Positions 1,696-58,020 of a stretch of DNA of 64,000 bases are shown here, piece after piece (within the stretch, counting starts at the first letter, position 1; each line of letters begins with the position of its first letter). Source of the DNA: a bacterium (GTDB lineage: Bacteria > Patescibacteriota > Minisyncoccia > Moranbacterales > GWC2-37-73); assembly GCA_003251635.1 (NCBI GenBank), contig QKEW01000012.1, forward strand, positions 53,333-117,332, given 5' to 3'. The notes below the pieces were generated by a model, which worked only from the letters and a program-made list of their open reading frames with translations, was not told where the DNA came from and made no database searches. A program made the translations under genes and the position numbers.

Positions 1696-2247
1696 CTAAC
1701 AACCTGCTAAGGGGCAGATTTCAATTGGGTGGTATTCTTCCCCGCCCTCCTGATCGGCTTTCTCAACTACCCAAACATTTTCCACTCCCAAAGAAATCTG
1801 ACACTTTTCTTGAATATCGGGTCGAGGATCCAATTGCTGCCATTTGTCTCGACGGAGCTTACCTAAAATTATTTGGGGAGAAAAACTTTTCTTGGAACTT
1901 TGAAAAATATCCAAAGCCTTTTCAATTGTTTCGTGAAGCTGCAACAATTGTTCACTGGATTTTCCAATTAGTCTGACGTATTGCGGTTTTTCCAGATTTG
2001 GTCCAATTTCAATTTGTTCAAATTCCAAATCAAAAATATCCAAACCCTTCAGGCTTTCGGATATTTTTTGGCAGATTTCCGGCAGTACACTTTCATCCAA
2101 ATAGCCCAAAGAAAAAAGCGCCACGTGCAAATTTTCGCTGCGTTGCCATTTGACCGGTAGATCCGACCACTTTTGAATTTTCCCAGCCAATCTTTTTTTG
2201 ACCAGCGGTGGAACTTCGATTTCCACGAAGATTTTTCGTTTACTCAT
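1696..2247 (-). CDS. 2H phosphoesterase superfamily protein (LigT/ThpR-like), catalytic motifs degenerate
   Basis: 183 aa with LigT-like length and spacing. The first H-x-T/S motif reads LHVALFSLG (Thr replaced by Ala). The second position reads PQIILGKL (His replaced by Gln). It may be catalytically inactive. Confidence 0.5.
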   Translation of the reverse strand: MSKRKIFVEIEVPPLVKKRLAGKIQKWSDLPVKWQRSENLHVALFSLGYLDESVLPEICQKISESLKGLDIFDLEFEQIEIGPNLEKPQYVRLIGKSSEQLLQLHETIEKALDIFQSSKKSFSPQIILGKLRRDKWQQLDPRPDIQEKCQISLGVENVWVVEKADQEGGEEYHPIEICPLAGC

Positions 2248-13994: not shown

Positions 13995-15275
13995 ATGAAA
14001 ACAGAAAAAGGAAGGGTTTGCATAATTGGTTTGGGCTATGTCGGCCTCCCATTGGCAGTTCAATGCGCCCTAAAAGGATATCAGGTTTTTGGTTTGGAAA
14101 ATGATGCCAAAAAAATTCAAAAAATCAATGCCGGGAAAAGTCCGATTAATGAGGATTTCTTAAACGAAAATTTACCAAAAGTTGCAATAAAGGCCACGTC
14201 AGATCCTTCAATTATCCAAAAATGCGACATTTCCATTGTCTGTGTGCCAACTCCGATTGATGAAAATTATTTTCCAGATTTGACTCCGGTCAAAAATGCG
14301 GTCAAAGCGGTAGTGGAAAATTTGAAAAAAGACCAATTGGTAGTTATTGAATCCACCATCAATCCGGGTGTTTGCGAAGAAGTGGTTGAACCGATCTTTG
14401 CCGAAGCTGGTTATAAAATTGGCCAGGACTACGAAATGGCCCATTGTCCGGAAAGAATAAATCCCGGAGATCCTAAATGGAATGTGACCAACATTCCTCG
14501 CGTAATAGGCTCATTCACCAAAAAGGGTCTTGGCGAGGCGGCCAAGTTCTATGAGGATATTATTGATGCCCCGATCATGAAGATGAAATCGATTCGGGAA
14601 GCCGAAGCGGTTAAAATTGTTGAAAATTCTTTCCGTGATATCAATATCGCTTTCGTTAATGAATTGGCCAAATCTTTTGATAAACTTGATATTGACTTAA
14701 ACGATGTTATCAAAGGCTGTGCCACTAAACCGTTTGCTTTTATGCCACACTTCCCTTCCTGCGGTGTTGGTGGCCATTGTATTCCAGTTGATCCGTATTA
14801 CTTGATTGAACGAGCCAAAGCCAGTGGTTTTGATCATGAATTTTTGAAAATTGCCCGCAAAGTTAACAATTCCATGCCAGAATATACGGTTGAATTGATG
14901 CAAGATGCTCTCAATAAATTAAAAATCGCCCTAAATGGCACAACGGTTGGTGTGCTGGGAATTTCCTACAAAGCCAATGTGGCTGATTTGCGCGAATCAC
15001 CGTCACTAAAAATCATCAAGCACCTAAAAAGACATGGCGCCAATGTCATCACTTTTGATCCCTACGTTTTGGAAAGCTCCAGTGAAAAAACTTTGGAAAA
15101 ATTTTTGCAAAAAGCCGATGCTATAATTTTGGCCACTAATCATCGAGAATTTGAACGGCTCGATCCTCAAATTTTTGAAAAATATAAAGTTAAGGCGATT
15201 GTTGATGGCAAAAATTGTCTTGATCCTGTCGCCATTCGAAAATTAAAAATTGTCTACAAAGGAATCGGCCGCTGA
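13995..15275 (+). CDS. UDP-glucose/GDP-mannose dehydrogenase family nucleotide-sugar 6-dehydrogenase
   Basis: N-terminal Rossmann VCIIGLGYVGLPLAV, catalytic Cys context CGVGGHCIPVDPYYL, and a C-terminal UDP-binding domain. Confidence 0.85.
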   Translation: MKTEKGRVCIIGLGYVGLPLAVQCALKGYQVFGLENDAKKIQKINAGKSPINEDFLNENLPKVAIKATSDPSIIQKCDISIVCVPTPIDENYFPDLTPVKNAVKAVVENLKKDQLVVIESTINPGVCEEVVEPIFAEAGYKIGQDYEMAHCPERINPGDPKWNVTNIPRVIGSFTKKGLGEAAKFYEDIIDAPIMKMKSIREAEAVKIVENSFRDINIAFVNELAKSFDKLDIDLNDVIKGCATKPFAFMPHFPSCGVGGHCIPVDPYYLIERAKASGFDHEFLKIARKVNNSMPEYTVELMQDALNKLKIALNGTTVGVLGISYKANVADLRESPSLKIIKHLKRHGANVITFDPYVLESSSEKTLEKFLQKADAIILATNHREFERLDPQIFEKYKVKAIVDGKNCLDPVAIRKLKIVYKGIGR

Positions 15276-15551: not shown

Positions 15552-16508
15552 ATGAAACTAATCGTTAATCTCCCTGCTTTTAATGAAGCGGAAAAGATAG
15601 CTCAAACCATTCAAAAAATTCCTCGAAAAATCGAAGGGATTGATGAAATTTTTGTTCAAGTTATCGATGATGGATCCAAAGACGGTACCGCCAAGATAGC
15701 CAAAGAAGCCGGAGCTGACTATGTTTTTTCGCACCAAGTTAATCGAGGAATCGGCATCACCTTCCGCACTGCCGTAGAAAAATCTCTGGAAAATGAAGCT
15801 GACATCATGGTCAACATTGATGCTGATGGTCAATTTGATCCAAATGATATCGCAAAAATCATCAAGCCGATCTTAAACGGCGAGGCAGATATGGTCAGTG
15901 CTGACCGCTTTGGGGATCACAAAGCTCAAAACATGCCGGCTGCCAAATATTATCTCAATCGTATTGCCGCTTGGATCATTGGAAAATTCATGAATTTCAA
16001 CATAAAGGATCTAACTTGCGGTTTTCGGGCCTACAACCGCGAAACTCTTTTGCGTCTGAATTTACCAGGACAATTCACCTACACCCAAGAAGTTATAATT
16101 GATGCCCTGGGTAAAAATCTTAAAGTCATGTGGATTCCGGTAATCGTTACCTATTTTGCCGAAAGAAAATCCCGAGTGGTAAAAAGCATCTATAAATATG
16201 TCAACAACAGCGCTCGCATTATTCTCAAAGCCGTGCGCGACGTCAGACCGATGAAATTTTTCGGAATCCCGGCTTTAATTTTAATTACCATCTCTGTTGG
16301 AACCTTCATTTACTTTGCGTCGCTCTACTTCCAAGATTTCAAAATAACCCCCTATCGAAATTATTTGCTCTTAGCTATCACTTTTCTCTTGATCGGTTTG
16401 CAATTTTTAGTGTTCGCTTTAATGGCTGATATGATCAAATCCAATCGCAAACTAACCGAAAGCCAGATGTATCTTATGAAAAAGGAAAAATACCAGAAAA
16501 AAAATTAG
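15552..16508 (+). CDS. GT2 polyprenyl-phosphate glycosyltransferase (Ppm1/GtrB/ArnC-like) with C-terminal TM helices
   Basis: VIDDGSKDGTAKIAKEAGADYVF ... DADGQFDPNDI (DxD context), plus two C-terminal TM helices as in GtrB/DPM1-type enzymes. Confidence 0.8.
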   Translation: MKLIVNLPAFNEAEKIAQTIQKIPRKIEGIDEIFVQVIDDGSKDGTAKIAKEAGADYVFSHQVNRGIGITFRTAVEKSLENEADIMVNIDADGQFDPNDIAKIIKPILNGEADMVSADRFGDHKAQNMPAAKYYLNRIAAWIIGKFMNFNIKDLTCGFRAYNRETLLRLNLPGQFTYTQEVIIDALGKNLKVMWIPVIVTYFAERKSRVVKSIYKYVNNSARIILKAVRDVRPMKFFGIPALILITISVGTFIYFASLYFQDFKITPYRNYLLLAITFLLIGLQFLVFALMADMIKSNRKLTESQMYLMKKEKYQKKN

Positions 16509-16520
16509 TCATATTGTTAT

Positions 16521-17594
16521 ATGAAAATTCTTTTTATATCTCATACTTATCCGCCCATCAGAGGCGGGGTTGAAACTCAAAATTTTGAAATTTTCTCCTG
16601 GCTGTCAAAAACCGAAGATGTAAAACTTATTGCCAACAAAAAAAGATGGCTGATCCCGTTTTTTTTCGGTTACGCAGCTATTCGAGTACTTTTTGAAGCC
16701 AGAAAATATGACGTTGTTTTGCTTGGAAGTTGTATCTTGGCTCCAATAGGCTGGCTAATAAAAAAAACCGGTCGAACTCCGGTTATTTCAATAGCTCATG
16801 GATTAGATTTAAACTGGAACAATCCCCTTTACCAATTTTTTTGGCCAAAATTTTTCGTTCCGGTTCTAGACAAATTGATTGCAGTTGGTAATGAAACCAT
16901 TGCGGTTGGCACAGCTAGAAATATACCTGAAGAAAAATTTGTTTTCATTCCAAATGGAATCGAAATAGAAAAGTTTTTCAAGCCACACTCCACAGTTGAA
17001 CTTGAGGAAATAATCAATGAAAAACTAAATGGACGAAAAGTTATCCTATCAACCGGAAGATTAGCTAAACATAAAGGCCTCGATTGGTTTTGCGAAAAAA
17101 TTCTGCCGTCACTTCCGGATGATATTATTTTCTTGATTGCCGGTGATGGAGAGAAAAGATCTGATATTGAAAAAATAATCAAAGAAAAAAAATTACAAAG
17201 CAAGGCGAAAATGTTGGGACGTGTGAATGATCAGGAATTAGAAGTTTTATACAACACGGCTGACATCTACGTTAAACCTAACATTAAAGTTGAAGGAACA
17301 ATGGAAGGCTTTGGCATAGTTGTGATTGAAGCAGCCTCCTGTAAACTTCCGGTGGTAGCAACAGACTTGGAAGGATTAAAAGACGCCATCAAAGACAATC
17401 AAAACGGATTTTTGATTGAACCAGGCGATGCCCAAGGCTTTGTCGACAAAATTAAGCAACTTTTGGATGACGAACGATTCAGAAAAGAGTTTGGTGAAAA
17501 AGCCCGTCAGTTCATTTTGGAAAACTACCAGTGGAAAAATATTTCACAAAAATATATCGAAGAGATTTCTAAGGTTTTGCAAAAAAATAAATAA
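16521..17594 (+). CDS. glycosyltransferase family 4
   Basis: EGFGIVVIEAASCKLPVVATDLEGLKDAIKDNQNGFLIEPGD. Confidence 0.8.
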   Translation: MKILFISHTYPPIRGGVETQNFEIFSWLSKTEDVKLIANKKRWLIPFFFGYAAIRVLFEARKYDVVLLGSCILAPIGWLIKKTGRTPVISIAHGLDLNWNNPLYQFFWPKFFVPVLDKLIAVGNETIAVGTARNIPEEKFVFIPNGIEIEKFFKPHSTVELEEIINEKLNGRKVILSTGRLAKHKGLDWFCEKILPSLPDDIIFLIAGDGEKRSDIEKIIKEKKLQSKAKMLGRVNDQELEVLYNTADIYVKPNIKVEGTMEGFGIVVIEAASCKLPVVATDLEGLKDAIKDNQNGFLIEPGDAQGFVDKIKQLLDDERFRKEFGEKARQFILENYQWKNISQKYIEEISKVLQKNK

Positions 17595-17609: not shown

Positions 17610-19586
17610 ATGTTCGCTTTTATTTTCAATCAAATTTTATTTTATTTTGGTGTAGTCTTGTTGCTTTTTTTGCCAGGCTATTTTTTGCTTAGAGTCATCT
17701 TTAAGCAAAAAAGTCCTTTTTCAAGTGAAGAAAAGTTTTTGCTTTCTTTGGCTTTGAGTGTCGGAATAGTTGATTTTTTTATGCTGATTTTAGGTAAAAT
17801 CGGCCTACCCTTGAGCCGCGGCTTTTTATTTGGCACGGTTTTTCTTTTCATTGTCCTTCTGATTTACCTGCCTTCTTTATTTGATAAGATAAAATTTTTA
17901 CGCCAAATCAAAAAAAGATTGGCTATTAAAAAAGCTGGGATAACTTTTGAAAAATTACCCAGACTTTCTCAAAAACAAAAACTTCTGATTATCCTGACTC
18001 TATTTTTGACTGTTTTTATAAAAACGATTTATCTGGAAAAAACGGTTTTTCCGACTTCAACTGACATGGGCCATCACATGTATTGGGCAAAACTGATTAC
18101 TACCAGTGAGCAGTTACCCGTTTATGTTGAATCCGATATCATTCAAACATCCGGTGGCTATGCCATTAGCCAACCCGAACCAATCGCTGATTTTATTATT
18201 GGCGAACATTTAATTTTTGCCGCTTTGGGTTCCCTGACTAAAGCGGATTTTGTTTCGGCCTTCCCTTCCTTGGTTTTATTGCTTTTTAATATAGCCACCG
18301 CTTTAGCAATTTTTGTTTTGGCTCGTCAAATTTTTCAAAAACATCCACAAGGATCAAACATTGCGATCTTGGCCTTGTTTCTGGCTGGTCCCCTTTTCGC
18401 CTTAGCTTCTCCTCAAGCTAAATTTGTCAGTGGCGGTGTCATTGGCAACACCTTGGGAAACTTTTTTATTCCCATCATCCTGTTGCTTTTGTTGAAAGCT
18501 CTTGAACAAAGAAAATCCGTCTTTCTTAGCTTGGCCTTATTTTTGAGCCTAACCTTGGTTTATACTCATCACCTCAGCACCTTTGTTTTTCTTTTTTCTT
18601 TGATTTCTACTTTTTTGATCTTTTTTCTTTTTAATCTCAAGAAAATCCCAGCCTATCTGAAAAATTGGCTACGACTTATAGCTAGTCCCTGGATTTGGCT
18701 GGTTATCGTTTTTGGAATTTGGATGGTATTTGAAATTTATATTCCCAGCTATCTCAATTCTTCAGCGGTAGGAACAGCTGTCGGCACACCATCTAAATCA
18801 ACTCGAACCGGATTAAGCTTTCAGCAATTAGCCTCAGCTACCGGTCAAATTCGTCTAATTTTGGCGCTCTTAGGAATGATCTTGATTGTCTGGCAAAAAA
18901 GATTGCGCAACTATGGTGAAACACTGTTGTTTGCTTGGGCTTTCGTTATTTTCATCATGTCCCTTTTCCCAGGATGGCTTTTTGTGGATATTCCTTCGAG
19001 TCGAATTGGCAATTATCTAATTTTTCCACTAATAATCCTTGCGGCTTTTGCCTTGGTAGAATTTTTCAACTTTTTCAAAACTCAAAATTCGTCCAGATTC
19101 ACCTTTTTGAAACCTTTCTATGTTATATTGATTTTCTTCATTCTTAGCGCCCTGATTGCTCAAAATGGAATGTCAGACAATGCTACTTCACTTTCTGATG
19201 GTGGAAATTCTCAAGCTGCCCTTCAAACTTTTCAAGCCTCAGCTTATTTATCCAAATTTACCAATTCCAAAGACGTGGTTTTGAAAGACCATAACTATCT
19301 GACTGCTGATTCTTGGATTAAACTCTATTTCATGAACGGCTACAACTTCCCCTTTTCTCGCAGTTATTTCAAGCGCTATGAGGATGCCGTCAATGAGCGG
19401 GAGCAGTGCACCTTGCAAATGATCTCAACGCCCAATTCTCCCGAGGCGCAAAAATGCTTTGAAGGAACTGGCGTAAATTTCTTAATGATCAATCCGCTCT
19501 ATGACAGCGCCCAATTCAAAAAAAATCGAGAATTTTGGCAAATTTATTCTTCGGATGAAATCGGAATTTTCTATAAAACTGACTAA
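17610..19586 (+). CDS. large polytopic membrane protein (658 aa), possible GT-C-fold glycosyltransferase/polymerase
   Basis: At least 12 TM helices and a 150-aa C-terminal extracytoplasmic domain, with no recognisable named motif. Its position after the Ppm1-like GT2 and a GT4 prompts the GT-C guess. Confidence 0.45.
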   Translation: MFAFIFNQILFYFGVVLLLFLPGYFLLRVIFKQKSPFSSEEKFLLSLALSVGIVDFFMLILGKIGLPLSRGFLFGTVFLFIVLLIYLPSLFDKIKFLRQIKKRLAIKKAGITFEKLPRLSQKQKLLIILTLFLTVFIKTIYLEKTVFPTSTDMGHHMYWAKLITTSEQLPVYVESDIIQTSGGYAISQPEPIADFIIGEHLIFAALGSLTKADFVSAFPSLVLLLFNIATALAIFVLARQIFQKHPQGSNIAILALFLAGPLFALASPQAKFVSGGVIGNTLGNFFIPIILLLLLKALEQRKSVFLSLALFLSLTLVYTHHLSTFVFLFSLISTFLIFFLFNLKKIPAYLKNWLRLIASPWIWLVIVFGIWMVFEIYIPSYLNSSAVGTAVGTPSKSTRTGLSFQQLASATGQIRLILALLGMILIVWQKRLRNYGETLLFAWAFVIFIMSLFPGWLFVDIPSSRIGNYLIFPLIILAAFALVEFFNFFKTQNSSRFTFLKPFYVILIFFILSALIAQNGMSDNATSLSDGGNSQAALQTFQASAYLSKFTNSKDVVLKDHNYLTADSWIKLYFMNGYNFPFSRSYFKRYEDAVNEREQCTLQMISTPNSPEAQKCFEGTGVNFLMINPLYDSAQFKKNREFWQIYSSDEIGIFYKTD

Positions 19587-19992: not shown

Positions 19993-21105
19993 ATGAAAAA
20001 AGTCTTATTAGTTACTCGTCCAATCGCCCCACCCTGGGATGAAGCTTCCAAAAACTTTGCCTATTTTCTAGCCAAGAACAATCGAGATTTTGAATTTAAT
20101 CTGCTTACTCCCGGCCAAATTGATTCGCTAGAAAAACACATTCAACAAATACCCATTTACACTTCCAACAGCCTGAATCTTAATTGGAAACAGCGCCTGA
20201 AGCTTTTTAAACTTCGCAGCAAATTGAAGGATTTCGATTTGGTTCACTTCATGCTTACCCCAAGCCGCCTGAATTCTTGGGCATTTAAAACTTTTTTGAC
20301 CAATTCAAAGATTAAAACCGTCCAAACCGTGGCCACTTTGCGCCAAGATCTTTTCTCCGACGAGCAACTCAAAAAAATAATGTTTGCCGATCTAGTCATC
20401 ACCTATTCCGATTGGGCCAAAAACAAGCTGGAACAGGTCGGGGTCAAGAACGTCAGACGCATATATCCCGGTATTGATCTTGAGCTTAATCGACCGACCG
20501 AAAAAGACCCGGAAACCCTGAAATTTTTCAATCTTTCTTCTCAAGATTTTGTCATTACCTACCCAGGTGAATATGTGCGCTTGGGAGCTACTGATTTTCT
20601 AGTTAAGAGCCTTCCGCTAATTTTTCAAAAAATACCTACGGCTAAATTTGTTTTTGCCTGTCGAATTAAAAATGAAAAAGATGCTCAAAAAAAAGCAGAG
20701 GTACAAAAAAGTTTGCAACAAAAAAATATCTTGGATCGAGTGGTTTTCACTGACACTTTTGCCCAAATGCCTAAACTTTATAATCTTTCTGACATAGTTG
20801 TTTTCCCAGTGCAAAATATGCACGGTAAATTTGACGTACCATTGGCCGCCATTGAAGCCATGGCCTGCGCCAAACCGTTGGTTATTTCCAACTTGCCGAT
20901 TCTGCAAGAATTCGCAAAGCCTGATAATTCTGTTATAATAAACCCGACTGATCAAGCCGAATTTATCAAAGTTTTGCAAGAATTGAAAAATGATCCGCTC
21001 AAATGCGAATCTCTGGGGAAAGCCGCCAGAAAATATGCCCAAGAAAATTTTGATATTCTCAATGTCAGCCAAAAATATTCGGAGATTTATAACTCGCTAA
21101 TTTGA
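19993..21105 (+). CDS. glycosyltransferase family 4/GT1-like
   Basis: FDVPLAAIEAMACAKPLVISNLPILQEFA. Confidence 0.75.
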   Translation: MKKVLLVTRPIAPPWDEASKNFAYFLAKNNRDFEFNLLTPGQIDSLEKHIQQIPIYTSNSLNLNWKQRLKLFKLRSKLKDFDLVHFMLTPSRLNSWAFKTFLTNSKIKTVQTVATLRQDLFSDEQLKKIMFADLVITYSDWAKNKLEQVGVKNVRRIYPGIDLELNRPTEKDPETLKFFNLSSQDFVITYPGEYVRLGATDFLVKSLPLIFQKIPTAKFVFACRIKNEKDAQKKAEVQKSLQQKNILDRVVFTDTFAQMPKLYNLSDIVVFPVQNMHGKFDVPLAAIEAMACAKPLVISNLPILQEFAKPDNSVIINPTDQAEFIKVLQELKNDPLKCESLGKAARKYAQENFDILNVSQKYSEIYNSLI

Positions 21106-21111
21106 TTTTCC

Positions 21112-22608
21112 ATGAAATATAAAGTTAAGGATATTAACGCCCACAAAAAAGAATTTCAACTTCCTGACATGAAAGTGCCAGTAATTTTTCATACCGGCCA
21201 AGAATTATTACCCAATGATCACACTTTTGAACAACTAGAAAACTTGGCCAAAGATGATCGACTCTTTCATCACATCGCCGCCATGAGCGATGTTCATCCA
21301 AAAAAAGGTCGCAAAAATCCGACCGGAACCGCTATTGCCAGTCAAAATATTTTGATGCCTCAAATAAACGACACTGCCCCTAACTGTGGAATGCGCTTTT
21401 TGAAAACCGATTTAAATGAAGAAAATTTGAGCGAGGAACAGATAAGCGATATTTTCCGACAACTTGTTGAAGCCGTGCCAACCAAAAAATATTTCGGCAC
21501 GACAATTTCCCATCAAATGGCTTTGGATGTGGCCCGCTTTGGCAGTAAACCCCTTTTAGATCATTTCCAAATCAGGACCAAAAATGAATTGGAAAATACC
21601 TATGCCAACGGCAATCTTTTTCGCGATCAAAAAATTTCACAAAAGGATATTCTCGATTGCGTTCCTTCACTCTTTTTTCATATTGGCAAATATCGCTTGG
21701 GAATCTTGGGAGCAGCTGGCAATCATTTTTTGGATCTGATGAAAATCACCGAAATCAAAGATGAAAAACTGGCGGAAAAATTAGGTGTCAAAAAGGGTCA
21801 ATATATTTTTCTGCTTCATACCGGCTCTGGTCTTTTGGGACAATATGCTTCCTACATGTACACACCCAAAAAGAAAGAGCATCTCAGTCAGCAAATTATT
21901 CTAAAATTAGGTACTACCCTTTTTTCTAGTCAGAAAAAACGAATTTATGAAAGAGTCAGCCAGAAATTGAAAGAATACAAAAATCGCGACGAATTTTTAG
22001 GTTACGATGAAAACAACTTGGAAGGTCAAATGTTTCTGGTCGCCCATAAAACCGCAGCTAATTTTGGTTTTGCTAACCGCACTATTTTGACTGATCAAAT
22101 TGATCGCACACTGGAAAAAGTTCTGGGACGCCAAGTCGAATTGGATTTGCTCTATGACAACACCCACATTTCCATTGAAAAAGAAAATCATTTTGGCCAA
22201 GACGTTTGGATTCATCGTAACGGCGCCGTTCGTGCCAATGGTCCAAGTCGCATGAAAGATCATTCTCTTTTCAGCCAAACTGGCGAGCCGGTTTTCATCC
22301 CTTCCTCCATGAGCACCCCGGCCTATTTGGGGGTTGGCACTGATAACAACGAATCGACTTTCTTTTCCGCCGGACATGGAACTGGCCGCCGAGCCGAGGC
22401 ACAAAAAGACAGAGCTGCCGACAAAAAAGAACTTTTTGAAAAAATGGAAAAAAGCCAAGTCAAACTTTTCAATGCTAAGTCCAAAGGTGTCATCAATCAG
22501 GACAGCGCCTATTATAAAGATGTAGAAGAAGTAATTTCCGGCATGCAAGACAATCAAATCATAAAGTTAGCAGCTAAAATGCAACCAGTGGCTGTTTTGA
22601 TGTATTAA
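21112..22608 (+). CDS. rtcB: RNA-splicing ligase RtcB (3'-phosphate/5'-hydroxyl RNA ligase)
   Basis: Metal-binding GAAGNHF motif (LGAAGNHFLDLMKI), IHRNGAVRA (HRKGA-type) motif, and C-terminal SAGHGTGRR (HGAGR-type) motif. Length 498 aa. Confidence 0.85.
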   Translation: MKYKVKDINAHKKEFQLPDMKVPVIFHTGQELLPNDHTFEQLENLAKDDRLFHHIAAMSDVHPKKGRKNPTGTAIASQNILMPQINDTAPNCGMRFLKTDLNEENLSEEQISDIFRQLVEAVPTKKYFGTTISHQMALDVARFGSKPLLDHFQIRTKNELENTYANGNLFRDQKISQKDILDCVPSLFFHIGKYRLGILGAAGNHFLDLMKITEIKDEKLAEKLGVKKGQYIFLLHTGSGLLGQYASYMYTPKKKEHLSQQIILKLGTTLFSSQKKRIYERVSQKLKEYKNRDEFLGYDENNLEGQMFLVAHKTAANFGFANRTILTDQIDRTLEKVLGRQVELDLLYDNTHISIEKENHFGQDVWIHRNGAVRANGPSRMKDHSLFSQTGEPVFIPSSMSTPAYLGVGTDNNESTFFSAGHGTGRRAEAQKDRAADKKELFEKMEKSQVKLFNAKSKGVINQDSAYYKDVEEVISGMQDNQIIKLAAKMQPVAVLMY

Positions 22609-22612
22609 ACTT

Positions 22613-23287
22613 ATGAAAATTATTTCCATTTCCGGGTTGGATGGCAGTGGCAAATCCACCCAGATCGAAAAACTCAAAAAACATTTTCTCAGAAAGAACC
22701 AAAAGGTTTTTTATCTTCACGCTATCGAATTTTCTCTGGCCAATAAATTCAAGAATTTTCGACAAAAATATTGTCCGCTTTGTCGGATTTTCAAACGTTG
22801 CAAAATTTCGACCGAAAATTCCCAAAGCGTCACTCGGGCCAATTGGCTGCAAATCCAGCTGCGCAAAATCCAACTCTTGATTGATATTTTGCGGTTTCGC
22901 AGCTTTATGCGCCAAAATAAAAATCATTTTGATGTTATTCTTTCCGATCGTTATTTTTTTGATTCAATAATCAACATTCAATACCTCTCGCTCTCTGGTC
23001 ATTCTGAGCAAAGCGAAAGACCTGATCCGGATTTGATGAAAAAAAATAGCCTGGGTTTTTTACTCAAAATGGCTGCCAAAATTATTCCCCAACCAAATCA
23101 GACTTTTTTCCTGGACGCCGAACCAGCTCTAATCATGCAAAGAAAAAGAGTGCCAGATCAAGGCTTGAAATACCTCCAAGCTAAACGTGAACTTTTTGAA
23201 GAGAAAATCACCGATTGGCAAATGCAGCGAATTGATGGCAATCGAAATGAAGAAGAAGTTTTTGGAGAAATTACAGAAAGTCTTTAA
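22613..23287 (+). CDS. thymidylate kinase-family P-loop kinase (Tmk-like, divergent)
   Basis: GLDGSGKSTQ P-loop of dTMP-kinase type, LSDRYFFDSI (DRY motif), and a C-terminal ...RIDGNRNEEEV resembling the Tmk C-terminus. The typical LID arginine cluster is lacking. It starts 4 nt after the rtcB stop. Confidence 0.55.
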   Translation: MKIISISGLDGSGKSTQIEKLKKHFLRKNQKVFYLHAIEFSLANKFKNFRQKYCPLCRIFKRCKISTENSQSVTRANWLQIQLRKIQLLIDILRFRSFMRQNKNHFDVILSDRYFFDSIINIQYLSLSGHSEQSERPDPDLMKKNSLGFLLKMAAKIIPQPNQTFFLDAEPALIMQRKRVPDQGLKYLQAKRELFEEKITDWQMQRIDGNRNEEEVFGEITESL

Positions 23288-23308
23288 TCTTTTTTAGCAA
23301 TTCAAAAA

Positions 23309-23347
23309 CCGCCCGAACGACACTGCGTCCCGGGCGGTTTTTATTTT
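23309..23347. terminator. bidirectional rho-independent terminator
   Basis: CCGCCCG-N15-CGGGCGG stem followed by TTTTTATTTT on plus and a T-run on minus. It sits between the + operon ending with the Tmk-like gene and the minus-strand small ORF. Confidence 0.7.
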
Positions 23348-23808: not shown

Positions 23809-25275
23809 ATGTCAAGCAATTTCCTTTTAAAGAGCGCTTTCTGGCTCACGGTTTCTGAAATTATCTATAACCTTTCCGGCTACATCATCCACTCCGCGGT
23901 AGGGCGAATTTTGGGCCCAGCCGACTACGGTCGCTATGGCTTGGTGGTAACTTTGACCACCATGGTCATCATCTTGATCGGCAACGGCATTCCGACCGCC
24001 ATGAGCAAATATTTGAGTGAAATTTTCCACAGCCATCCCGAAAAAGTCCAGCCCATCAAAAAACAGGCTCTGAAACTGCAGATCCTGATTATTAGCGCAA
24101 TCACCCTGCTTTTCTTTCTGGCCGCTCCCTTGATCGCCCGAATTTTGGGAGATCTGAGCCTAACCAATTTGTTTCGCCTTTCCACTTTGATTATTCCAGC
24201 TTTTGCCAGCGCCTCTTTTTATTTTTATTACTACACCGGCATCCATCATTTCAACTTGCAATCAATCCTCAAAACATTGCGCTCTCTTTTTCGAGTCATT
24301 GCCATCATCACCTTGGCCTTTTTTTTCCACGTTGAAGGTTCAGTAGCTGGCTATATTGTTGCTCCCCTAGCCGTTTTCTTGATAGCTTACCTTATTGATA
24401 AATTTAAAATTTCTTCAAAATTTCCCAAAAACAGCACTGAATCATTTGACTGGAAAAAGTTGGCCAACTACGCCTGGCCGGTCACTCTATTCATGCTTTT
24501 CTATGAACTGTTCATCTCCATCGACCTCTATCTGGTCCAAGGAATTTTGCGCAACGAGCATCTGACGGGAATCTATAACGGCGCCTTGACCGTGGCCCGT
24601 ATTCCCTATTTTCTTTTCTATGCTTTGACAATTATTTTGCTTCCAACTATTTCCAAGTCAACTTCTCAAAATAATCATCAGGAAACTTTTTCAATTATTT
24701 CCAGTTCTCTGCGCCTGATGTTGATCATGCTTTTTCCGGCCGTGCTGCTGCTATCTTTTTATTCTTCTCAGGTTTTGACTTTGTTTTATGGCGCAACTTT
24801 TTCCGAAGGGGCCGCAGCCATGTCAATTCTTTCCGTTGGAGTCGGCTTTTTAACTATTTTTTATGTTCTGAGCTTCGTTATGAACGGAGCTGGCAAGGTT
24901 AAGATTCCCATGTGGATTTCCCTGGGCGGGCTAATTTTTAACACTGCCCTAAACTACATTTTGATTCAAAAATATGCTCTGCTTGGTAGCGCCAGCGCTA
25001 CTGCCCTAGCCTCATTTTTGATTATGATTTTAATGCTAAGCTGCATTCGTCAGAATTTTGCCGTTTCAATCAAGCTAGCCTCTCTTTTCAAGATAATCGC
25101 GGCTTCCATAACCACATTAGCCGCCCTATTTTTGCTGCCAAATTCCCAGTTGTTATTCATTCTGTCCTCAATTGTGGCTCTGGGTATTTATTTTGCAATT
25201 CTCTACACTTCCAAAGAAATATCTTCTCAGGATTTGCAGCTAGTAAAAAGCTTATTGCAAAGAAAAAAGAAATAA
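23809..25275 (+). CDS. Wzx-type polysaccharide/oligosaccharide flippase (MOP superfamily)
   Basis: 488 aa and 12 to 14 TM helices. The N-terminal region LTVSEIIYNLSGYIIHSAVGRILGPADYGRYGLVVTL is typical of RfbX/Wzx flippases. Confidence 0.8.
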   Translation: MSSNFLLKSAFWLTVSEIIYNLSGYIIHSAVGRILGPADYGRYGLVVTLTTMVIILIGNGIPTAMSKYLSEIFHSHPEKVQPIKKQALKLQILIISAITLLFFLAAPLIARILGDLSLTNLFRLSTLIIPAFASASFYFYYYTGIHHFNLQSILKTLRSLFRVIAIITLAFFFHVEGSVAGYIVAPLAVFLIAYLIDKFKISSKFPKNSTESFDWKKLANYAWPVTLFMLFYELFISIDLYLVQGILRNEHLTGIYNGALTVARIPYFLFYALTIILLPTISKSTSQNNHQETFSIISSSLRLMLIMLFPAVLLLSFYSSQVLTLFYGATFSEGAAAMSILSVGVGFLTIFYVLSFVMNGAGKVKIPMWISLGGLIFNTALNYILIQKYALLGSASATALASFLIMILMLSCIRQNFAVSIKLASLFKIIAASITTLAALFLLPNSQLLFILSSIVALGIYFAILYTSKEISSQDLQLVKSLLQRKKK

Positions 25276-25294: not shown

Positions 25295-27073
25295 TTATTC
25301 CTCCAACAAATCATCTTGGCTTTCGTCGTCTTGTTCAAAACACTCTCCTTTGCGAAAGATTTCGTTCCAAGTATAACGCTTTTGAACATTTGAACTCTCA
25401 CCACAATCAGCTTTAGCCGGTTCAATGACTTGTTTTTGAGCTGTGATTGAATCAGGTTTGGGTTTGAGCTGGAAAACAGTCAAGGTTCCGAATTCTTTTT
25501 TACCAACCGTTTCGTAGTTTACCAAATATTTTGCCAACCGATCCTCCCAATTAGCTGCCGTACGATAAATCAGAAAATGATTACCTTCAGCATAAACAGT
25601 ATTAACAGCCAACATATCTTGGGGAATTTTTCGATCGTTTAAAATATAAATGAACGATCGAGCGTAATAGGATTCACTTTGCAGATAAATCGGGTAACCA
25701 TTTTGGCGATAAAAATCCTCTAAATAATCGACAATCACATTTTGCTGCTGATAAGTTACCCTGGCCCTTTCTTTCAAAATCCGATCCGGTTGAATTTCAA
25801 CATCTTGTGTCAAAGCACTACCCAATTGCCAGAATCGCTCCTGAATCGCCGACAAATTCAAGCCGACTAAAACTACTACCAAAACCCAAAAAATAACTCG
25901 GCGAGAATAAAATTTTTCCAAAAATTCAAAAATCAGTCCCAACCAAACAAAAGCCAGTGGAGCCGTCACCAGAAAAAATCGTGGCGCAATATCATAGGAT
26001 AGCGGCGTCATCACCCCAAAAGAAACGATCAGCCAAATCAAGCTCAAAATCAAAAAATCCTTTTTATGTCCTGCTTCTTTATTCCTAAAAAATTCAAAAA
26101 TCAACAAGATTATTCCTCCGGCATAAAAAACTCCCGCTACCAAACCCGGAATCAAATTTTTTCGACAATCATAATCACACTTAATATCCAAGGGGGCTAA
26201 AATTTTGGATCGAGTCTCAATTTTGGGAAGTTCAGCCTGCTCTCGTCCGGAAATTATCAAGAAATGACCGAGAGCATGTTCCGTGAAATTACGCGTAGCT
26301 TTTTCCAAAAGATTATGATCACTTTCATCTGATTTATTGGTTACCGCTGCCAAAAATTCCTGGATGTTCTCCCCTCCCGTTTTGACATCATTGATAATCA
26401 TGGGCGTATAAATCAAAACGATAATGCCCAGGGCTATCAACCAAGCCTGAATTTTAAACTTCGGTCTTTTGATTAGCAAGAAAATTCCCACAATTGTCGG
26501 CAAAATCAAAAAAACCAAAAAATGCAATTGGGTGCCGATAGCTACTGAAAAAGCCAAGGCATAGAGCCATCTTTGTTTGTGACCTTCCTGGTGATCAACT
26601 ATTTTGAGCAAGGAATAGGCGCTGAGTAACATGAAAAATGGAATCAGATTCGGATTCCAAGCAAAGCGCGAATACATTACCAAGAAAATTGAAGTTGAAA
26701 AGATTGCCAGCAGACCAGCCGAGATTCGGGTATTAAAATAACGTCTGGCAAATAAATAAAAAAGTGGCATGGTCAAAATCGACAAAATCAAGACTCCCGC
26801 TGCCATAGCCGGTGGCGTGGCCCCAAAAACTTTAGCTGTTAGATATTGCATATAATAGAAAGCTGGGCCCAAACGCAAGAAAGAACCGGCTGCCCGCGGA
26901 CCCTGAAGCGGCAGATAGCCAATTCCATCCTCAGCTGCCTTGAGGGCAATTTTAGCGTCACGTGCTTGATCCAATTCAAAGTGCAACCAGTCTCCAAAAT
27001 GAAAAGAGCGCAAAAAAACTCCAACTGCCATTATCAAAATCAACGTCCAAATAACTTTTTTTCGATTTTTCAT
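25295..27073 (-). CDS. GT-C fold glycosyltransferase of the ArnT/PMT (GT39/GT83-like) family
   Basis: 592 aa. The first extracytoplasmic loop carries HFELDQARDAKIALKAAEDG (acidic D-E/D-Q motif region). It has multi-TM N-terminal and soluble C-terminal domains. Confidence 0.65.
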   Translation of the reverse strand: MKNRKKVIWTLILIMAVGVFLRSFHFGDWLHFELDQARDAKIALKAAEDGIGYLPLQGPRAAGSFLRLGPAFYYMQYLTAKVFGATPPAMAAGVLILSILTMPLFYLFARRYFNTRISAGLLAIFSTSIFLVMYSRFAWNPNLIPFFMLLSAYSLLKIVDHQEGHKQRWLYALAFSVAIGTQLHFLVFLILPTIVGIFLLIKRPKFKIQAWLIALGIIVLIYTPMIINDVKTGGENIQEFLAAVTNKSDESDHNLLEKATRNFTEHALGHFLIISGREQAELPKIETRSKILAPLDIKCDYDCRKNLIPGLVAGVFYAGGIILLIFEFFRNKEAGHKKDFLILSLIWLIVSFGVMTPLSYDIAPRFFLVTAPLAFVWLGLIFEFLEKFYSRRVIFWVLVVVLVGLNLSAIQERFWQLGSALTQDVEIQPDRILKERARVTYQQQNVIVDYLEDFYRQNGYPIYLQSESYYARSFIYILNDRKIPQDMLAVNTVYAEGNHFLIYRTAANWEDRLAKYLVNYETVGKKEFGTLTVFQLKPKPDSITAQKQVIEPAKADCGESSNVQKRYTWNEIFRKGECFEQDDESQDDLLEE

Positions 27074-27173: not shown

Positions 27174-29525
27174 ATGTTTAAAAAAATTCTTTCCAAAACC
27201 CAGACTGTCTTGAACCAAAAGGCCATTTTTAATCTCAAAAATACCCGAACGATTTTGCTTTTCAATTCTCTGTTTTTCGTCTTAATCGCCAAATTTGTCA
27301 GCGATCCACAAATTCTGAAAATAATCCCGCTTTTTTACTTCATATACGCTTTGGAGTTTTTAATTTTGATTATTAATTTGTTTTTCAACTCGGCCACAAA
27401 ATATTCCCTGACTGAAAAATTGGGAAAATTTCTGAAAACCTTTTTGCCGGCCGAGATTATTTTGATTTTTGGATTATTATCCGCCCCGATCAATTTTAAC
27501 GTTCTTTTTCATTTGGCTGGCGGGTTATATTTGATCCTAACTGGAATTTGGCTGATTCGAATTCGTCATTTTCATTGGACAGAAAAAGAAAAATCTTCTC
27601 AAAGTCCAGCTAGCTTGGCCAAATCTTATCTTCGCTCTCAAGGCAAAGTTATCTTGACGTTGCTTTTACTTGTCATGGCGATCAACTTTCTCTTCGGCAT
27701 CGATCATCTGGCCAAATTTGCCGCCGTGGATGAACCGCTTTGGACTTTCGAAAGAGTTCCCCAATTTTTCCGCAACATCCTCGATGGCGATTGGGACAAA
27801 ACCAACATCAGCGATAAACCTGGCATAACCGTGGCCTTGATCTCCGGTTGGGGAATTTTCTGGGAAAATCCCAGGGTTTACAAAAAATATTACAAGGACG
27901 GAGAAGTGGATTCTAACCCCTATGACATAGCTGATTTGAATCTGGCCATGCGCCTCCCAATTTTTCTTTTCGCGATTTTTTCCCTGCCGATTTTTTATTT
28001 TTTTCTAGAACGCTTATTGGGCAAAACCGCGGCTATTTACAGCACCATTTTGATCGGACTTTCTCCAATTTTATTGGGAATTTCCCGGATCATTAACCCG
28101 GATTCCCTGCTGTGGATTTTTGCTCCTCTCTCTTTAATTGCTTTTCTGACCTACTACCGAAAAAGAATCCCGTTTTTTCTCTATGCCAGCGGTTTTTTTC
28201 TTGGTTTGGCCCTGCTGACCAAATACGTTGCCAATATCCTACTCATCTTTTTTCTGGGTTGGATTTTCTTGGAATATATTTTTAATTCCAAAAAATATCA
28301 AAACATTTCATTATCTCAATACTTAAAACAATCCCTAACTGATTATTTGGTTTTAATTTTTGTCGCTTTGGCCACTTTCTATTTGCCTTTCCCAGCAGCC
28401 TGGGTTGAACCGAAATTGATATTGAACGACACTATTTTTTCCCAGGCTTTTCAAAAAACTTGGCCGGTTTTCTTAGCATTTTTCTTGTTTTTGTTGATTG
28501 ATACTTTAGTTTTAAAAAGCAAGATTTTAAAAACAATTTTAGATTTTCTAAAAAAATATCAAAAAATTATTTTCGCCGGAACAATTCTATTTTTTCTCCT
28601 ATGCCTGATTTTGACTTTTATTAATGTCTATCTCGGCATGAGCTGGTTTGATTTTGTGGAGATCATCAGCTCACCCAAAACCTCCTATTCGGCCGCCGGT
28701 TATCGCGATCTTTTTTTGGCTAATTTCTTTCCATTTGTTTTCACTTTGACACCGATTACCATCTTGGCTTTGATTATTTGGTTATTTTTACAGTTTAGAA
28801 TTTTTCACAAAAAAACGATCAATCCAAAAATCTCCCTGACTTTCGCTTTGATTGTTTTTATCTTGCTTTATTATCTGGCCACCACCGTTAACCAAGTAGC
28901 CGCCACTAACCGCTATCAAATAATACTCTTTCCTTTGGCTATGATTTTGGCCGGATTAGCCTTGGGCACCGCCCATCTTTATTTGAAAAATAAGTTTACC
29001 AAAATCAATCCGAATATTTATTATTTTTCAATCATCTTGATTTCAACGATTTCCTTGTGGTCGACAAAACCGCTCTTCATGAGTTATGATTCGATTCTTT
29101 TGCCTAATCAATATTATACCAATTTGAAGGATATGGGTGATGGCAGCTACGAAGCTGCGGAATTCATCAACTCCCTGCCCAACGCCGATCAACTGCACGT
29201 CTGGACTGACAAGCGCGGGGTTTGCTCATTTTTGAAAGCTAAATGCTTTTCCGGTTTTGATTATGATATTTTCTGGCAAGAAGGTATTGATTTAGCCGTG
29301 ATCTCAGCTGGTCGGCAATCCCGAACCACCAAACTCATCCACACTTATTTGAATTCAACTAAAAAAGCCATCGTTCGATTTGATTGGCTCTATGACAAAA
29401 GCGACCAGGATGTAATTTTCGACTTACCAATCAATCAACGCCCAGCCAATTTCATAAAAGTCATCAAAATAAACGACTTGGAAGATTACCGCAATATTCC
29501 AGATCCAGCTAAGATAAAACCTTAA
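27174..29525 (+). CDS. large GT-C fold (PMT/ArnT-like) membrane glycosyltransferase, 783 aa
   Basis: FAAVDEPLWTFERVPQFF (DE motif in first loop) followed by many TM helices. It is divergent from its neighbour at 25295-27073. Confidence 0.5.
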   Translation: MFKKILSKTQTVLNQKAIFNLKNTRTILLFNSLFFVLIAKFVSDPQILKIIPLFYFIYALEFLILIINLFFNSATKYSLTEKLGKFLKTFLPAEIILIFGLLSAPINFNVLFHLAGGLYLILTGIWLIRIRHFHWTEKEKSSQSPASLAKSYLRSQGKVILTLLLLVMAINFLFGIDHLAKFAAVDEPLWTFERVPQFFRNILDGDWDKTNISDKPGITVALISGWGIFWENPRVYKKYYKDGEVDSNPYDIADLNLAMRLPIFLFAIFSLPIFYFFLERLLGKTAAIYSTILIGLSPILLGISRIINPDSLLWIFAPLSLIAFLTYYRKRIPFFLYASGFFLGLALLTKYVANILLIFFLGWIFLEYIFNSKKYQNISLSQYLKQSLTDYLVLIFVALATFYLPFPAAWVEPKLILNDTIFSQAFQKTWPVFLAFFLFLLIDTLVLKSKILKTILDFLKKYQKIIFAGTILFFLLCLILTFINVYLGMSWFDFVEIISSPKTSYSAAGYRDLFLANFFPFVFTLTPITILALIIWLFLQFRIFHKKTINPKISLTFALIVFILLYYLATTVNQVAATNRYQIILFPLAMILAGLALGTAHLYLKNKFTKINPNIYYFSIILISTISLWSTKPLFMSYDSILLPNQYYTNLKDMGDGSYEAAEFINSLPNADQLHVWTDKRGVCSFLKAKCFSGFDYDIFWQEGIDLAVISAGRQSRTTKLIHTYLNSTKKAIVRFDWLYDKSDQDVIFDLPINQRPANFIKVIKINDLEDYRNIPDPAKIKP

Positions 29526-29535
29526 ACTTTTAGAA

Positions 29536-30462
29536 TTATTTCTTTCGATTTTGTAAATAGAAAGGCAGCGCTAAGCAACTAATTAGCATTTGTAAAATCC
29601 GACTAACAAAAGCTACCAACACGGCCACGCCCAGTGGTATCCCAAAAAAACCAAAAAAAGTCGCGTAGGCCCATTCTTTTATGCCGATATTATTGATGCT
29701 GATTGGAATGGAAGAAACTATACTACAAAGAAAAATTACCGAGAGGTAATTTAGCACATCAATTTTTATTCCCAAAGCTAAAAACAAAACGTAATTAGCC
29801 AAGGCCAAGCCAACCAAGGAAAATAAAAAAGACATCAAAATTGATTTGGCTAAAATTTTAGTCTCTGAATATCTTCGCAAAATCGAGCTGAAATTTACCA
29901 CTTTTTGAGGTAAAAAATTAAAAAAACGACGCCAAATATCCAAATTAAAACTAAACTGCAAAATTACCAAAAAAACCAAACTAATCCAACCCCCCAGCAG
30001 CAGAAAAAACAAGATAGGACTGTTCTTGATAATGGCCAGATTCCAGGTAGCGAAAACTAAGAATAAAATCAGAGCGCCAATCAAGCCACTTAGCCGATCC
30101 ATCACAACTCCGGCCGCCGCTTCTTTCATTTTCCCGTTCTTCTTTCCCAACTGATAAATTTTAAAACCGTCTCCCCCAATAAATCCAGGCAGAAAATTAT
30201 TAATAAAAGTTCCCGTCCAATATAGCTTCAAAAAGTAAAAAAACTTGCCGCTAACTTCAAGGTAGGAGCTCAAAACTCGCCACTTCCAAGCCGAAATAAA
30301 CACGCCAACAGCAAATAACAATAAATAGAGGAAAATCCAAAAAAGATTGGCTTCGTGCAGATCCAGCCAAGTTTGATGCCAATCAACTCGCCAGATCAGA
30401 TAGCCGATCAAACCCAAACTGACAATTAATTTTAAGAAAAACTTAGTGATTTTTTTGCTCAT
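29536..30462 (-). CDS. flippase-like domain protein (lysylphosphatidylglycerol synthase TM region / UPF0104 family)
   Basis: 308 aa polytopic; the N-terminus KLIVSLGLIGYLIWRVDWHQTWLDLHEANLFWIFLYLLLF is typical of this family. It overlaps the upstream GT4 stop by 20 nt. Confidence 0.55.
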   Translation of the reverse strand: MSKKITKFFLKLIVSLGLIGYLIWRVDWHQTWLDLHEANLFWIFLYLLLFAVGVFISAWKWRVLSSYLEVSGKFFYFLKLYWTGTFINNFLPGFIGGDGFKIYQLGKKNGKMKEAAAGVVMDRLSGLIGALILFLVFATWNLAIIKNSPILFFLLLGGWISLVFLVILQFSFNLDIWRRFFNFLPQKVVNFSSILRRYSETKILAKSILMSFLFSLVGLALANYVLFLALGIKIDVLNYLSVIFLCSIVSSIPISINNIGIKEWAYATFFGFFGIPLGVAVLVAFVSRILQMLISCLALPFYLQNRKK

Positions 30463-57981: not shown

Positions 57982-58020
57982 ATATTATTTTTATCATCAC
58001 TAATATCTGAAATTCACAAT

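Follow-up and report, generated by a model that had tools for sequence, protein, structure and literature searches.

We analysed a 64,000-nucleotide stretch of a Moranbacterales genome (GenBank assembly GCA_003251635.1, contig QKEW01000012.1, positions 53,333 to 117,332; hereafter the window), in which three consecutive genes encode a family 4 glycosyltransferase (GT4), an RtcB-family enzyme and a P-loop kinase of the thymidylate kinase (Tmk) fold (Table 1). Our preferred reading, to which we assign a probability of about 0.4, is that the three proteins form one conserved module of a lipid-linked envelope glycoconjugate pathway, and not an RNA-repair cassette. The triad was found in Moranbacteria, in Omnitrophota and in a third lineage of low GC content, and always among genes for GT2, GT4, GT-C (PMT_2) and flippase-like (MOP or LPG_synthase_TM) proteins.

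Gene order in the window and in related loci

The three open reading frames (ORFs) are co-oriented and tightly packed, as the sequence-only reading of this DNA had described. The stop codon of the GT4 gene ends at 21105 and the rtcB ATG lies at 21112, leaving a 6-nucleotide (nt) spacer, while 4 nt separate the end of the rtcB stop codon (22608) from the ATG of the kinase gene (22613). Folding confirmed the strong terminator that had been noted after the kinase gene; its 12-bp stem, an A/U-extended GC stem followed by a T-run, has a ΔG of −22.3 kcal/mol (z = −4.78), and 0 of 200 shuffled sequences were as stable. The sequence-only reading had also placed the block at the tail of an operon, which is correct for this genome but not for most relatives, where the kinase gene overlaps, or lies no more than 50 nt from, the gene for a MOP-family flippase. 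Compared with the relatives, the terminator and the 521-nt gap 3′ of the kinase gene are peculiar to this genome. The gap, which relatives lack, holds an antisense ORF for a 105-residue transmembrane (TM) protein, which shares the terminator.

To see the block in a wider sample, we used a genome scan, which gave relatives in 368 species (80 loci kept), and a metagenome scan, which added 80 loci; the window proteins were mapped onto these loci by tblastn. Of 105 loci with enough flanking sequence, 95 had rtcB upstream of the kinase gene, and in 57 the two lay no more than 150 nt apart. The flippase gene followed the kinase gene in 103 of 107 (within 150 nt in 72, overlapping in about 25, with a median gap of 36 nt), and the GT4 and rtcB genes were separated by a median of 31 nt over 94 loci, overlaps being frequent. 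The block was retained even at 32–38% identity of the kinase to that of the window. The sequence-only reading had taken a lack of conservation outside this genome as part of the grounds for abandoning a link between RtcB and the kinase; the adjacency extends across the Moranbacteria-type loci and also to Omnitrophota and another lineage.

The RtcB–kinase junction does receive insertions, which reach 6 kb in L017 and L033. In one Moranbacteria genome a 23S_rRNA_IVP (PF05635) gene lies between rtcB and the kinase gene (L001, 5636–5998; L002, 924–1286), so the junction tolerates insertions. In ten loci (about 10%) GT4 and RtcB are absent and the kinase and flippase genes are kept together behind IscS-NifU or cysS. 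The block thus consists of two separate tight pairs, GT4–RtcB and kinase–flippase, which are usually docked together. Where GT4–RtcB is missing upstream, the kinase–flippase pair directly follows or adjoins genes for Fe-S assembly proteins (IscS/NifS, NifU), as in L084 (2353–4009), L078 (55–1362) and L009 (7987–9255), and in L157 (7450–7932) the kinase gene alone does so.

A search with a profile of the kinases least similar to that of the window brought in family members from Omnitrophota, Thorarchaeota, Uhrbacteria and others, and in seven of the eight lineages sampled the kinase gene adjoins genes for flippase-like, GT4 or GT-C proteins. Two loci share one gene order: L166 (GC 0.42), whose kinase is labelled Omnitrophota by NCBI, and L167 (GC 0.53). 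Both read GT2, GT4b, B12-binding radical SAM protein, GT4, RtcB, kinase and LPG_synthase_TM, followed 3′ by PMT_2 in L166 or an unassigned 510-residue protein in L167, and then by GT2, ArnA/ArnD-like and epimerase genes. The RtcB–kinase gap is 1 nt in each of them, and the GT4 and rtcB genes overlap by 1 nt in L167 and are 7 nt apart in L166. L170 (GC 0.30), which carries a GT9 lipopolysaccharide (LPS) gene, reads GT4, RtcB, kinase, LPG_synthase_TM and GT2, with the triad genes overlapping or 1 nt apart. The ArnA/ArnD-like genes of L166 and L167 and the GT9 gene of L170 indicate that these genomes are not members of the Candidate Phyla Radiation (CPR).

In a marine locus, L173, the order is GT2, epimerase, B12-binding radical SAM protein, GT4, NTP_transf_5, kinase and LPG_synthase_TM; here a nucleotidyltransferase (NTase) of Pol-beta type (NTP_transf_5, PF14907, 47 bits) occupies the slot of RtcB. 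An independent survey of phosphonate clusters has described PEP mutase genes flanked by 'thymidylate kinase' and PF14907 (10.1101/2021.04.07.438883). The remaining lineages have the kinase without RtcB: L169 reads GT4, kinase, GT-C_AftD, PMT_2, flippase and GT2; in L168 kinase and flippase genes adjoin those for BacA, an NTP_transferase and a GT4; and soil contigs of the L156 group carry genes for an LbH protein, a STAS protein, a weak MOP-like protein and the kinase. The multi-TM protein of the L156 group was considered as a relative of the window flippase and counted as weak (E = 0.004; Pfam 20.7 bits, under the cut-off).

The GT4s that adjoin RtcB or the NTase in Moranbacteria, L166, L167 and L173 are mutual best matches, scoring 118–179 bits against each other and at most 64 bits against paralogues. 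Judged by these scores, the GT4s found beside RtcB make up an orthologous subfamily of their own, which accompanies RtcB from Moranbacteria to Omnitrophota. The second GT4 of the window, GT4b, likewise scores 212–215 bits against its counterparts in L166 and L167, compared with at most 96 bits against the other GT4s of the window. Between phyla, RtcBs share only about 30% identity, as do the kinases, which makes the linkage an old one. Taken together, tight coupling across phyla, an orthologous GT4, a constant glycan setting and substitution of RtcB by an NTase are poorly explained by chance synteny.

A B12-binding radical SAM gene is a constant of the non-CPR clusters (L166, 2899–4383; L167, 2868–4340; L170, 2970–4376, minus strand; L173, 3150–4628) and sits at the position that the DUF1616/DUF6541 gene has in Moranbacteria. 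Its presence is a hint that the sugar may be C-methylated or rearranged.

The kinase is a divergent member of the Tmk superfamily

The kinase carries both motifs that had been read from the sequence, GLDGSGKSTQ (residues 8–17) and DRY (residues 112–114), and its earlier description as divergent and Tmk-like agrees with the family searches. Its match to PF02223 (37.5 bits; cut-off 27) is limited to residues 6–33 around the P-loop. Against TIGR00041, the equivalog model for deoxythymidine monophosphate (dTMP) kinase, it scored 36.5 bits and its relatives 34–60 bits, the cut-off being 83.25. An exhaustive phmmer search of 1.84 billion representatives found 284 relatives at E ≤ 1e-3; by these measures the family is a small one that stands well apart from mainstream Tmk.

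The fold is that of Tmk. All of the top 50 Foldseek matches in the PDB to the AlphaFold2 model of the kinase (predicted local distance difference test score, pLDDT, 88.5) are thymidylate kinases. Profile comparison with the PDB gave E = 8e-13, and hhalign against Tmks a probability of 99%. The top 19 profile matches in the PDB are all Tmk, and the next ones, a YorR-type protein (2axp), dNK/dCK and adenylate kinase, follow at E ≥ 5e-4. Neither polynucleotide kinase (PNK) nor Clp1 appeared among the fold and profile matches listed, so that a 5′-OH kinase of the PNK/Clp1 type, which the sequence-only reading had suggested, finds no backing in these comparisons; the relatives are nucleoside monophosphate (NMP) kinases.

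In the widest alignment the superfamily shows no variation at G8, D10, G11, G13, K14, D112, R113, D117 and R177 and very little at Y114, which gives the DR(Y/F/H) motif. Within the Moranbacteria clade H36, R84, D91, R94, R179, Q183, Y187 and K191 are invariant as well. The kinase has in common with Tmks (PF02223/TIGR00041) and the NMP/dNK fold the GxDGxGK P-loop with its Asp, the DR(Y/F) motif and, probably, a conserved Arg at the start of the LID. Its P-loop lacks the type-I Arg, so that LID arginines would be expected. The LID itself has about 8 residues fewer, and R145 of A. aeolicus, the canonical LID Arg, lies opposite a gap. The earlier claim that LID arginines are lacking is thus right in that the canonical long LID is absent, and wrong in that R177 is invariant in the superfamily and R179 in the Moranbacteria clade.

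The acceptor, or NMP-site, region differs most from that of Tmks. 'YFHA', with the nearly invariant His36, replaces 'TREP/FPER', a CxxC...C loop is inserted, and an extra-long helix spans residues 78–101. In hhalign alignments with Tmks, residues ~80–95, in the first part of the long helix, are unaligned, the Cys-rich loop (~55–66) falls opposite a gap, and the template's 'LLF' with the stacking Phe72 is itself opposite a gap in the kinase; helix 4 of Tmks, with its thymine-stacking Phe and Arg, could not be aligned, and no thymine/phosphate element was found. Because the features of the substrate site and of the equivalog model fail, we do not file the protein as a bona fide dTMP kinase; from its sequence and predicted structure, it is a member of the Tmk fold superfamily with a place in glycan clusters.

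Three further features of the family were noted. Most Moranbacteria kinases have the Cys-rich insert, K-Y-C-x-x-C-...-C (residues ~55–64 in the window kinase), which the wider family lacks and which could be a zinc or redox site. Proteins of about 400 residues with two Tmk-like domains in tandem occur in the wider family (P0208, P0223, P0264). Fusions of the kinase with RtcB, GT4 or flippase were not seen.

RtcB keeps its nucleophile and four metal ligands and has an altered nucleotide pocket

The window RtcB matches PF01139 over its full length (239.1 bits; cut-off 27; residues 41–496 on profile positions 1–424 of 426), and its best match in the PDB is PhoRtcB (E = 1e-34). It is under every RtcB cut-off of NCBIfam, the best equivalog being NF007153 (124.7 bits versus 407). 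In PhoRtcB numbering, all 65 orthologues recovered from related loci, that of the window included, have the metal ligands Cys98, His203, His234 and His329 as well as His404, the nucleophile; equivalents of these residues are kept in the RtcBs of Omnitrophota and L170. A loss of Asp95, the M2 ligand in the D-x-x-C motif, suggested by the Ala that aligns with it in the NDTAPNCG of the window enzyme, was set aside as a probable alignment artefact: in the 65 orthologues the loop, ND[TS][AD]PNCG, is two residues longer than that of PhoRtcB, and its invariant Asp lies two residues upstream. Elsewhere the loop reads VNANC (Omnitrophota) or ANADC (L170).

In PhoRtcB, Glu206 contacts N1 and N2 of guanine, Lys480 contacts O6, and Asn330 the γ-phosphate (PMC9745838). 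In the window clade Glu206 is Asp in 59 of 65 enzymes, Asn330 is Ile, Val or Leu in all 65, Lys480 is replaced by Met, Thr, Ser or Val (the C terminus reads ...LMY), and Ser385 by Ala; the window enzyme itself has Asp for Glu206, Ile for Asn330, Met for Lys480 and Ala for Ser385. The cluster RtcBs of Omnitrophota and L170 retain Glu206 and Lys480. Going by its residues, the window RtcB looks catalytically alive, with an altered nucleotide pocket. Cluster RtcBs score 216–234 bits against each other and 137–209 bits against PhoRtcB, the sole outside comparison, which weakly suggests that they form a clade.

Two other RtcB subtypes were observed. A short variant, most examples having 434–474 residues, occupies the same locus upstream of the kinase gene in L010, L022, L026, L066, L080 and L083; about 29 residues are deleted just past the His404 motif, a second deletion lies elsewhere, and N202S and G405E are present as well. 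This variant may have degenerated or changed in function. A third subtype, marked by 'NDSDPNCG' and by Cys in place of His67, alternates with the window subtype among equally distant genomes.

A possible envelope pathway

In the pathway that we propose, the kinase would act at the cytoplasmic face, using ATP to phosphorylate a sugar, an alditol or a lipid-linked intermediate or to extend a phosphate already on it. RtcB would charge its conserved His with a nucleotide and pass the NMP to this phosphomonoester, as in the formation of RNA(3′)pp(5′)G. Omnitrophota-type enzymes would use GMP for this, and the window clade, which is without Lys480, possibly another NTP. The NDP-activated intermediate could then serve as a donor for the adjacent GT4 or, alternatively, be attacked by a hydroxyl via RtcB, giving a phosphodiester-linked (teichoic-acid-like) decoration. 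The adjacent flippase-like protein would flip the product, and the GT-C enzymes would deliver it outside.

RtcB can stop at a capped 3′-pp-G product, and a Myxococcus RtcB paralogue caps 5′-phosphates; there is, thus, a precedent for the guanylylation of assorted phosphomonoesters. That RtcB was recruited from nucleic-acid repair to envelope synthesis, from CPR to Omnitrophota, and there nucleotidylates a non-RNA phosphomonoester beside a phosphate-installing Tmk-fold kinase, before hand-off to GT4 or phosphodiester sealing, would be a categorically new use of RtcB chemistry, which we put forward tentatively and with the odds somewhat against it.

To our knowledge, RtcB is known solely for joining nucleic-acid ends, and Tmk-fold kinases solely for acting on nucleotides or nucleosides. 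The translationally coupled triad has been retained over a very long time in the glycan clusters of unrelated, mostly uncultivated, ultra-small bacteria, and in one lineage an NTase can take over from RtcB. Together these observations point to a new class of RtcB substrate or to an obligatory connection of RNA ligation with envelope assembly that has gone unrecognised. In both cases a conserved 'hypothetical / dTMP kinase' family would gain a function, and the result would bear on the 'missing' tmk of Parcubacteria and on how CPR bacteria and Omnitrophota build their surfaces. The glycan setting suggests that glycan synthesis may have taken over the chemistry of RNA repair; if so, teichoic-acid-like or phospho-glycan linkages would be formed by way of an RNA ligase.

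Alternative explanations

The alternative that survives best, unlikely in our view though a serious contender for CPR bacteria, is that housekeeping genes were kept in place by synteny: RtcB would be an RNA repair or splicing ligase and the kinase a divergent thymidylate or NMP kinase, both co-transcribed with envelope genes in a compact genome and tied mechanistically neither to one another nor to the making of glycans. A number of observations speak for it, and most of these weigh against an envelope module. RtcB has all its catalytic residues conserved, exactly those that an RNA ligase needs. The kinase keeps the acidic P-loop residue typical of Tmk (the Asp that binds the 3′-OH of dTMP) as well as DR(Y) and Arg177, its top fold matches are all Tmks, and JGI and NCBI label members of its family as thymidylate or dTMP kinase. 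A tblastn search with approximate E. coli and B. subtilis Tmk sequences, covering 1.4 Mb of Moranbacteria locus DNA (about 2% of each genome), matched this kinase alone and no canonical tmk. Representation of tmk in Parcubacteria is reported to be poor (Nelson and Stegen, PMC4508563), which fits a divergent housekeeping Tmk. Furthermore, priA, def and fmt lie inside the glycan region of the window and recJ just past it; some genomes have the kinase gene behind IscS-NifU or between NifU and RNase III; and the flippase, whose best NCBIfam matches are SpoVB (100 bits) and MurJ (53 bits), both under their cut-offs, could be a lipid II flippase.

Other points count against the envelope module for reasons of their own. 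It relies on gene context, the mechanistic steps being inferred from gene architecture and residue conservation. The ten loci that keep kinase and flippase without GT4 and RtcB fit it poorly, as does the weakness of the RtcB clade. Three non-CPR lineages were sampled, with a taxonomy taken from the labels of metagenome-assembled genomes and from gene content, and an ancient transfer of a whole cluster could have carried passenger genes along.

Against housekeeping synteny stands the occurrence of the GT4–RtcB–kinase order, with 1-nt gaps and an orthologous GT4, in non-CPR bacteria of LPS type at about 30% identity, which makes chance synteny very unlikely. The larger non-CPR genomes should also carry a canonical Tmk, which would make the kinase a paralogue there. 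In L173 an NTase takes the place of RtcB. Finally, the kinase family is tiny (284 representatives), is everywhere under the NCBI cut-off for dTMP kinase, and has an NMP-site region that cannot be aligned to Tmks.

It is also conceivable, if improbable, that the kinase phosphorylates a carrier lipid (polyprenol, polyprenyl-phosphate or a lipid-linked sugar, with a logic like that of LpxK) and that RtcB is a passenger or acts on the lipid phosphate. The kinase–flippase link is the most constant one (103 of 107 loci, often overlapping), LPG_synthase_TM lies directly 3′ of the kinase in L166, L167 and L173, BacA adjoins it in L168, and the window encodes a DedA/VTT protein. The family-specific helix 78–101, with conserved R84, D91, R94 and F95, replaces the NMP-binding region; the widest alignment, however, shows variation at these four residues. 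No TM segment is present in the kinase, and we know of no Tmk-fold lipid kinase that could serve as a precedent. A lipid kinase would, moreover, leave unexplained why GT4 and RtcB (or the NTase) precede it.

A model built on the sequence-only reading, in which nucleic-acid ends are the substrate of the kinase, or RtcB is charged with a nucleotide that the kinase provides, and RtcB seals RNA, the pair being co-regulated with envelope genes, appears quite improbable. Tight coupling across phyla is compatible with it, and the window clade, without the Lys480 and Asn330 contacts and with Asp for Glu206, could go with another nucleotide cofactor, supplied locally; the Omnitrophota-type cluster RtcBs, however, keep Glu206 and Lys480, so a special nucleotide is not needed there. 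RtcB requires a 5′-OH, and a 5′-kinase would therefore antagonise it. The fold and profile matches point to NMP kinases and not to PNK/Clp1, and Pfam scans of the window and of the relatives' loci found no RtcA, archease, RtcR, Pnkp or Hen1 near the triad. The partners that the pair always has are a specific GT4 upstream and a flippase-like membrane protein downstream, in lipid-linked glycan clusters. The kinase is encoded without RtcB in about 10% of the related loci and in several other lineages, where it lies beside flippase, GT-C and GT4 genes, and in one lineage an NTase stands in for RtcB. There are no tRNA genes in the window, and no tRNA or intron-containing RNA gene that would hint at a local RtcB substrate. 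PADLOC assigned no defence system to GT4, RtcB, the kinase or the 2H protein described next.

A 2H protein of the ThpR/LigT family, encoded in the window, had been named as another candidate for RNA-end processing, and its presence would suit an RNA-end function of the triad. It is degenerate, as had been noted, and encoded on the minus strand: both catalytic HxT motifs have decayed, to HVAL (motif 1) and QIIL (motif 2), so that two H-x-T/S motifs were not found, although the protein still exceeds the ThpR cut-off. Its gene lies 19 kb from the triad, directly upstream of a TagA/WecG glycosyltransferase gene. The pair of 2H and WecG genes is also present in L009 (3207–4534; 38% and 49% identity), and is a second case of an 'RNA-end' family protein linked to an envelope glycosyltransferase.

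Relation to known systems

A literature search for RtcB with thymidylate kinase, RtcB with a glycosyltransferase, or RtcB in Patescibacteria gave no prior description, and the search found the pairing in none of the described RtcB systems (RtcBA, archease, PrfH) or glycan systems (Arn, Gtr, Wzx/Wzy). The window enzyme resembles those of RtcBA-RtcR, RtcB-archease and RtcB-PrfH in its full-length PF01139 domain, metal ligands and His404. In contrast to these systems, RtcA, archease, RtcR and PrfH are absent nearby and the fixed partners are GT4, the Tmk-like kinase and flippase or GT-C proteins; the enzyme also differs in its pocket residues, its longer Asp95 loop and its scores under the NCBIfam cut-offs.

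The gene logic of the module we favour, in which a kinase, an NMP-transferring enzyme and a Leloir glycosyltransferase follow each other, is that of AmgK/MurU, Fkp and HddA/HddC, where kinase and nucleotidyltransferase activate a sugar that feeds a glycosyltransferase. The likeness extends to the protein of nucleotidyltransferase fold in the RtcB slot of L173, the NTP_transferase near the L168 kinase and the LbH protein near the kinase of the L156 group. The differences are that the kinase has the Tmk fold, and not that of GHMP, ASKHA or APH kinases, and that NMP transfer would go via the covalent His-NMP of RtcB, a route which, as far as we know, is unprecedented for sugar activation.

There is also a likeness to extracytoplasmic glycosylation of the Arn/Gtr type, with its GT2 polyprenyl-phosphate sugar synthase, flippase and GT-C enzyme. 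GT2, a flippase-like protein (LPG_synthase_TM or MOP) and PMT_2/ArnT-like GT-C enzymes are encoded both in the window and in the clusters of Omnitrophota; Ugd is found in the former and ArnA/ArnD-like proteins in the latter. We know of no Arn/Gtr system that includes RtcB or a Tmk-like kinase. Pnkp/Hen1 RNA repair resembles the triad in that a P-loop kinase is found beside an enzyme of polynucleotide-ligase type; the kinase of Pnkp is, however, of the PNK type and feeds an ATP-dependent ligase of 5′-P and 3′-OH ends, and Hen1 and phosphatase domains are absent here.

The surrounding glycan region

The window, which its composition (GC ~39%) and best homologues place in Moranbacteria, within the Patescibacteria/CPR, contains, at 840–32230, a large region devoted to cell-envelope glycopolymer, as judged from a Pfam scan of its proteins. 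The region encodes TagA/WecG, an LCP ligase, a Wzy_C protein, several GT4s, Ugd, GT2, a DUF1616/DUF6541 membrane protein, the triad, the MOP-family flippase, two GT-C enzymes of PMT type, an LPG_synthase_TM protein and a DedA protein. In the clusters of Omnitrophota, L170 and L173, a protein of this LPG_synthase_TM family is encoded directly 3′ of the kinase gene.

Table 1. Features of the window discussed in the text, with positions counted from its first nucleotide
Feature	Position	Strand	Basis and remarks
TagA/WecG glycosyltransferase	840-1583	-	
ThpR/LigT-family 2H protein	1696-2247	-	NCBIfam ThpR TIGR02258, 72.5 bits (cut-off 65.7)
UDP-glucose/GDP-mannose dehydrogenase	13995-15275	+	Opens the co-oriented glycan block; Pfam UDPG_MGDP_dh (N-terminal, central and C-terminal domains); homologue at the same spot in L145
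GT2 with TM helices at its C terminus (type of the ArnC/GtrB-like polyprenyl-phosphate sugar synthases)	15552-16508	+	Pfam Glycos_transf_2; kept upstream in many loci
GT4b, second GT4	16521-17594	+	Pfam Glycos_transf_1, 138 bits; cross-phylum orthologue
Multi-TM protein, 658 residues (DUF1616/DUF6541)	17610-19586	+	Weak Pfam DUF1616; orthologues with DUF6541; position upstream of the triad kept in Moranbacteria-type loci
Small TM protein, 130 residues	19598-19990	+	No match in Pfam or NCBIfam; ORF of similar size at the same spot in L003, L004 and L172
GT4 glycosyltransferase	19993-21105	+	ORF; Pfam Glycos_transf_1 (63.5 bits) and Glyco_transf_4; adjoins rtcB
RtcB-family enzyme, 498 residues	21112-22608	+	PF01139, 239 bits, full length
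Tmk-fold P-loop kinase, 224 residues	22613-23287	+	Divergent family tied to glycan clusters
Intrinsic terminator, probably bidirectional (A-run, GC stem, T-run)	23304-23347	+	Sequence, terminator scan, folding
Antisense TM ORF, 105 residues	23352-23669	-	Fills the long kinase-flippase gap; no family match
MOP-superfamily flippase (Wzx/SpoVB/MurJ-like)	23809-25275	+	Pfam Polysacc_synt 95.9 bits, MurJ 49.7 bits
GT-C (PMT_2/ArnT-like)	25295-27073	-	Pfam PMT_2 and PMT; kept in related loci and in Omnitrophota cluster L166
Second GT-C (PMT/PMT_2)	27174-29525	+	Pfam
LPG_synthase_TM (MprF-flippase-like) membrane protein	29536-30462	-	PF03706, 134 bits
recJ	32239-33951		

GC skew is negative across nearly all of the window (1–64000), and the cumulative skew runs steadily down to −5.2 with no switch, so neither a replication origin nor a terminus lies inside it. 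Outside the glycan region, a class A RNase P RNA (RF00010, 122 bits) is encoded at 58021–58356 on the minus strand, and the ORFs called over 57943–58357 are spurious.

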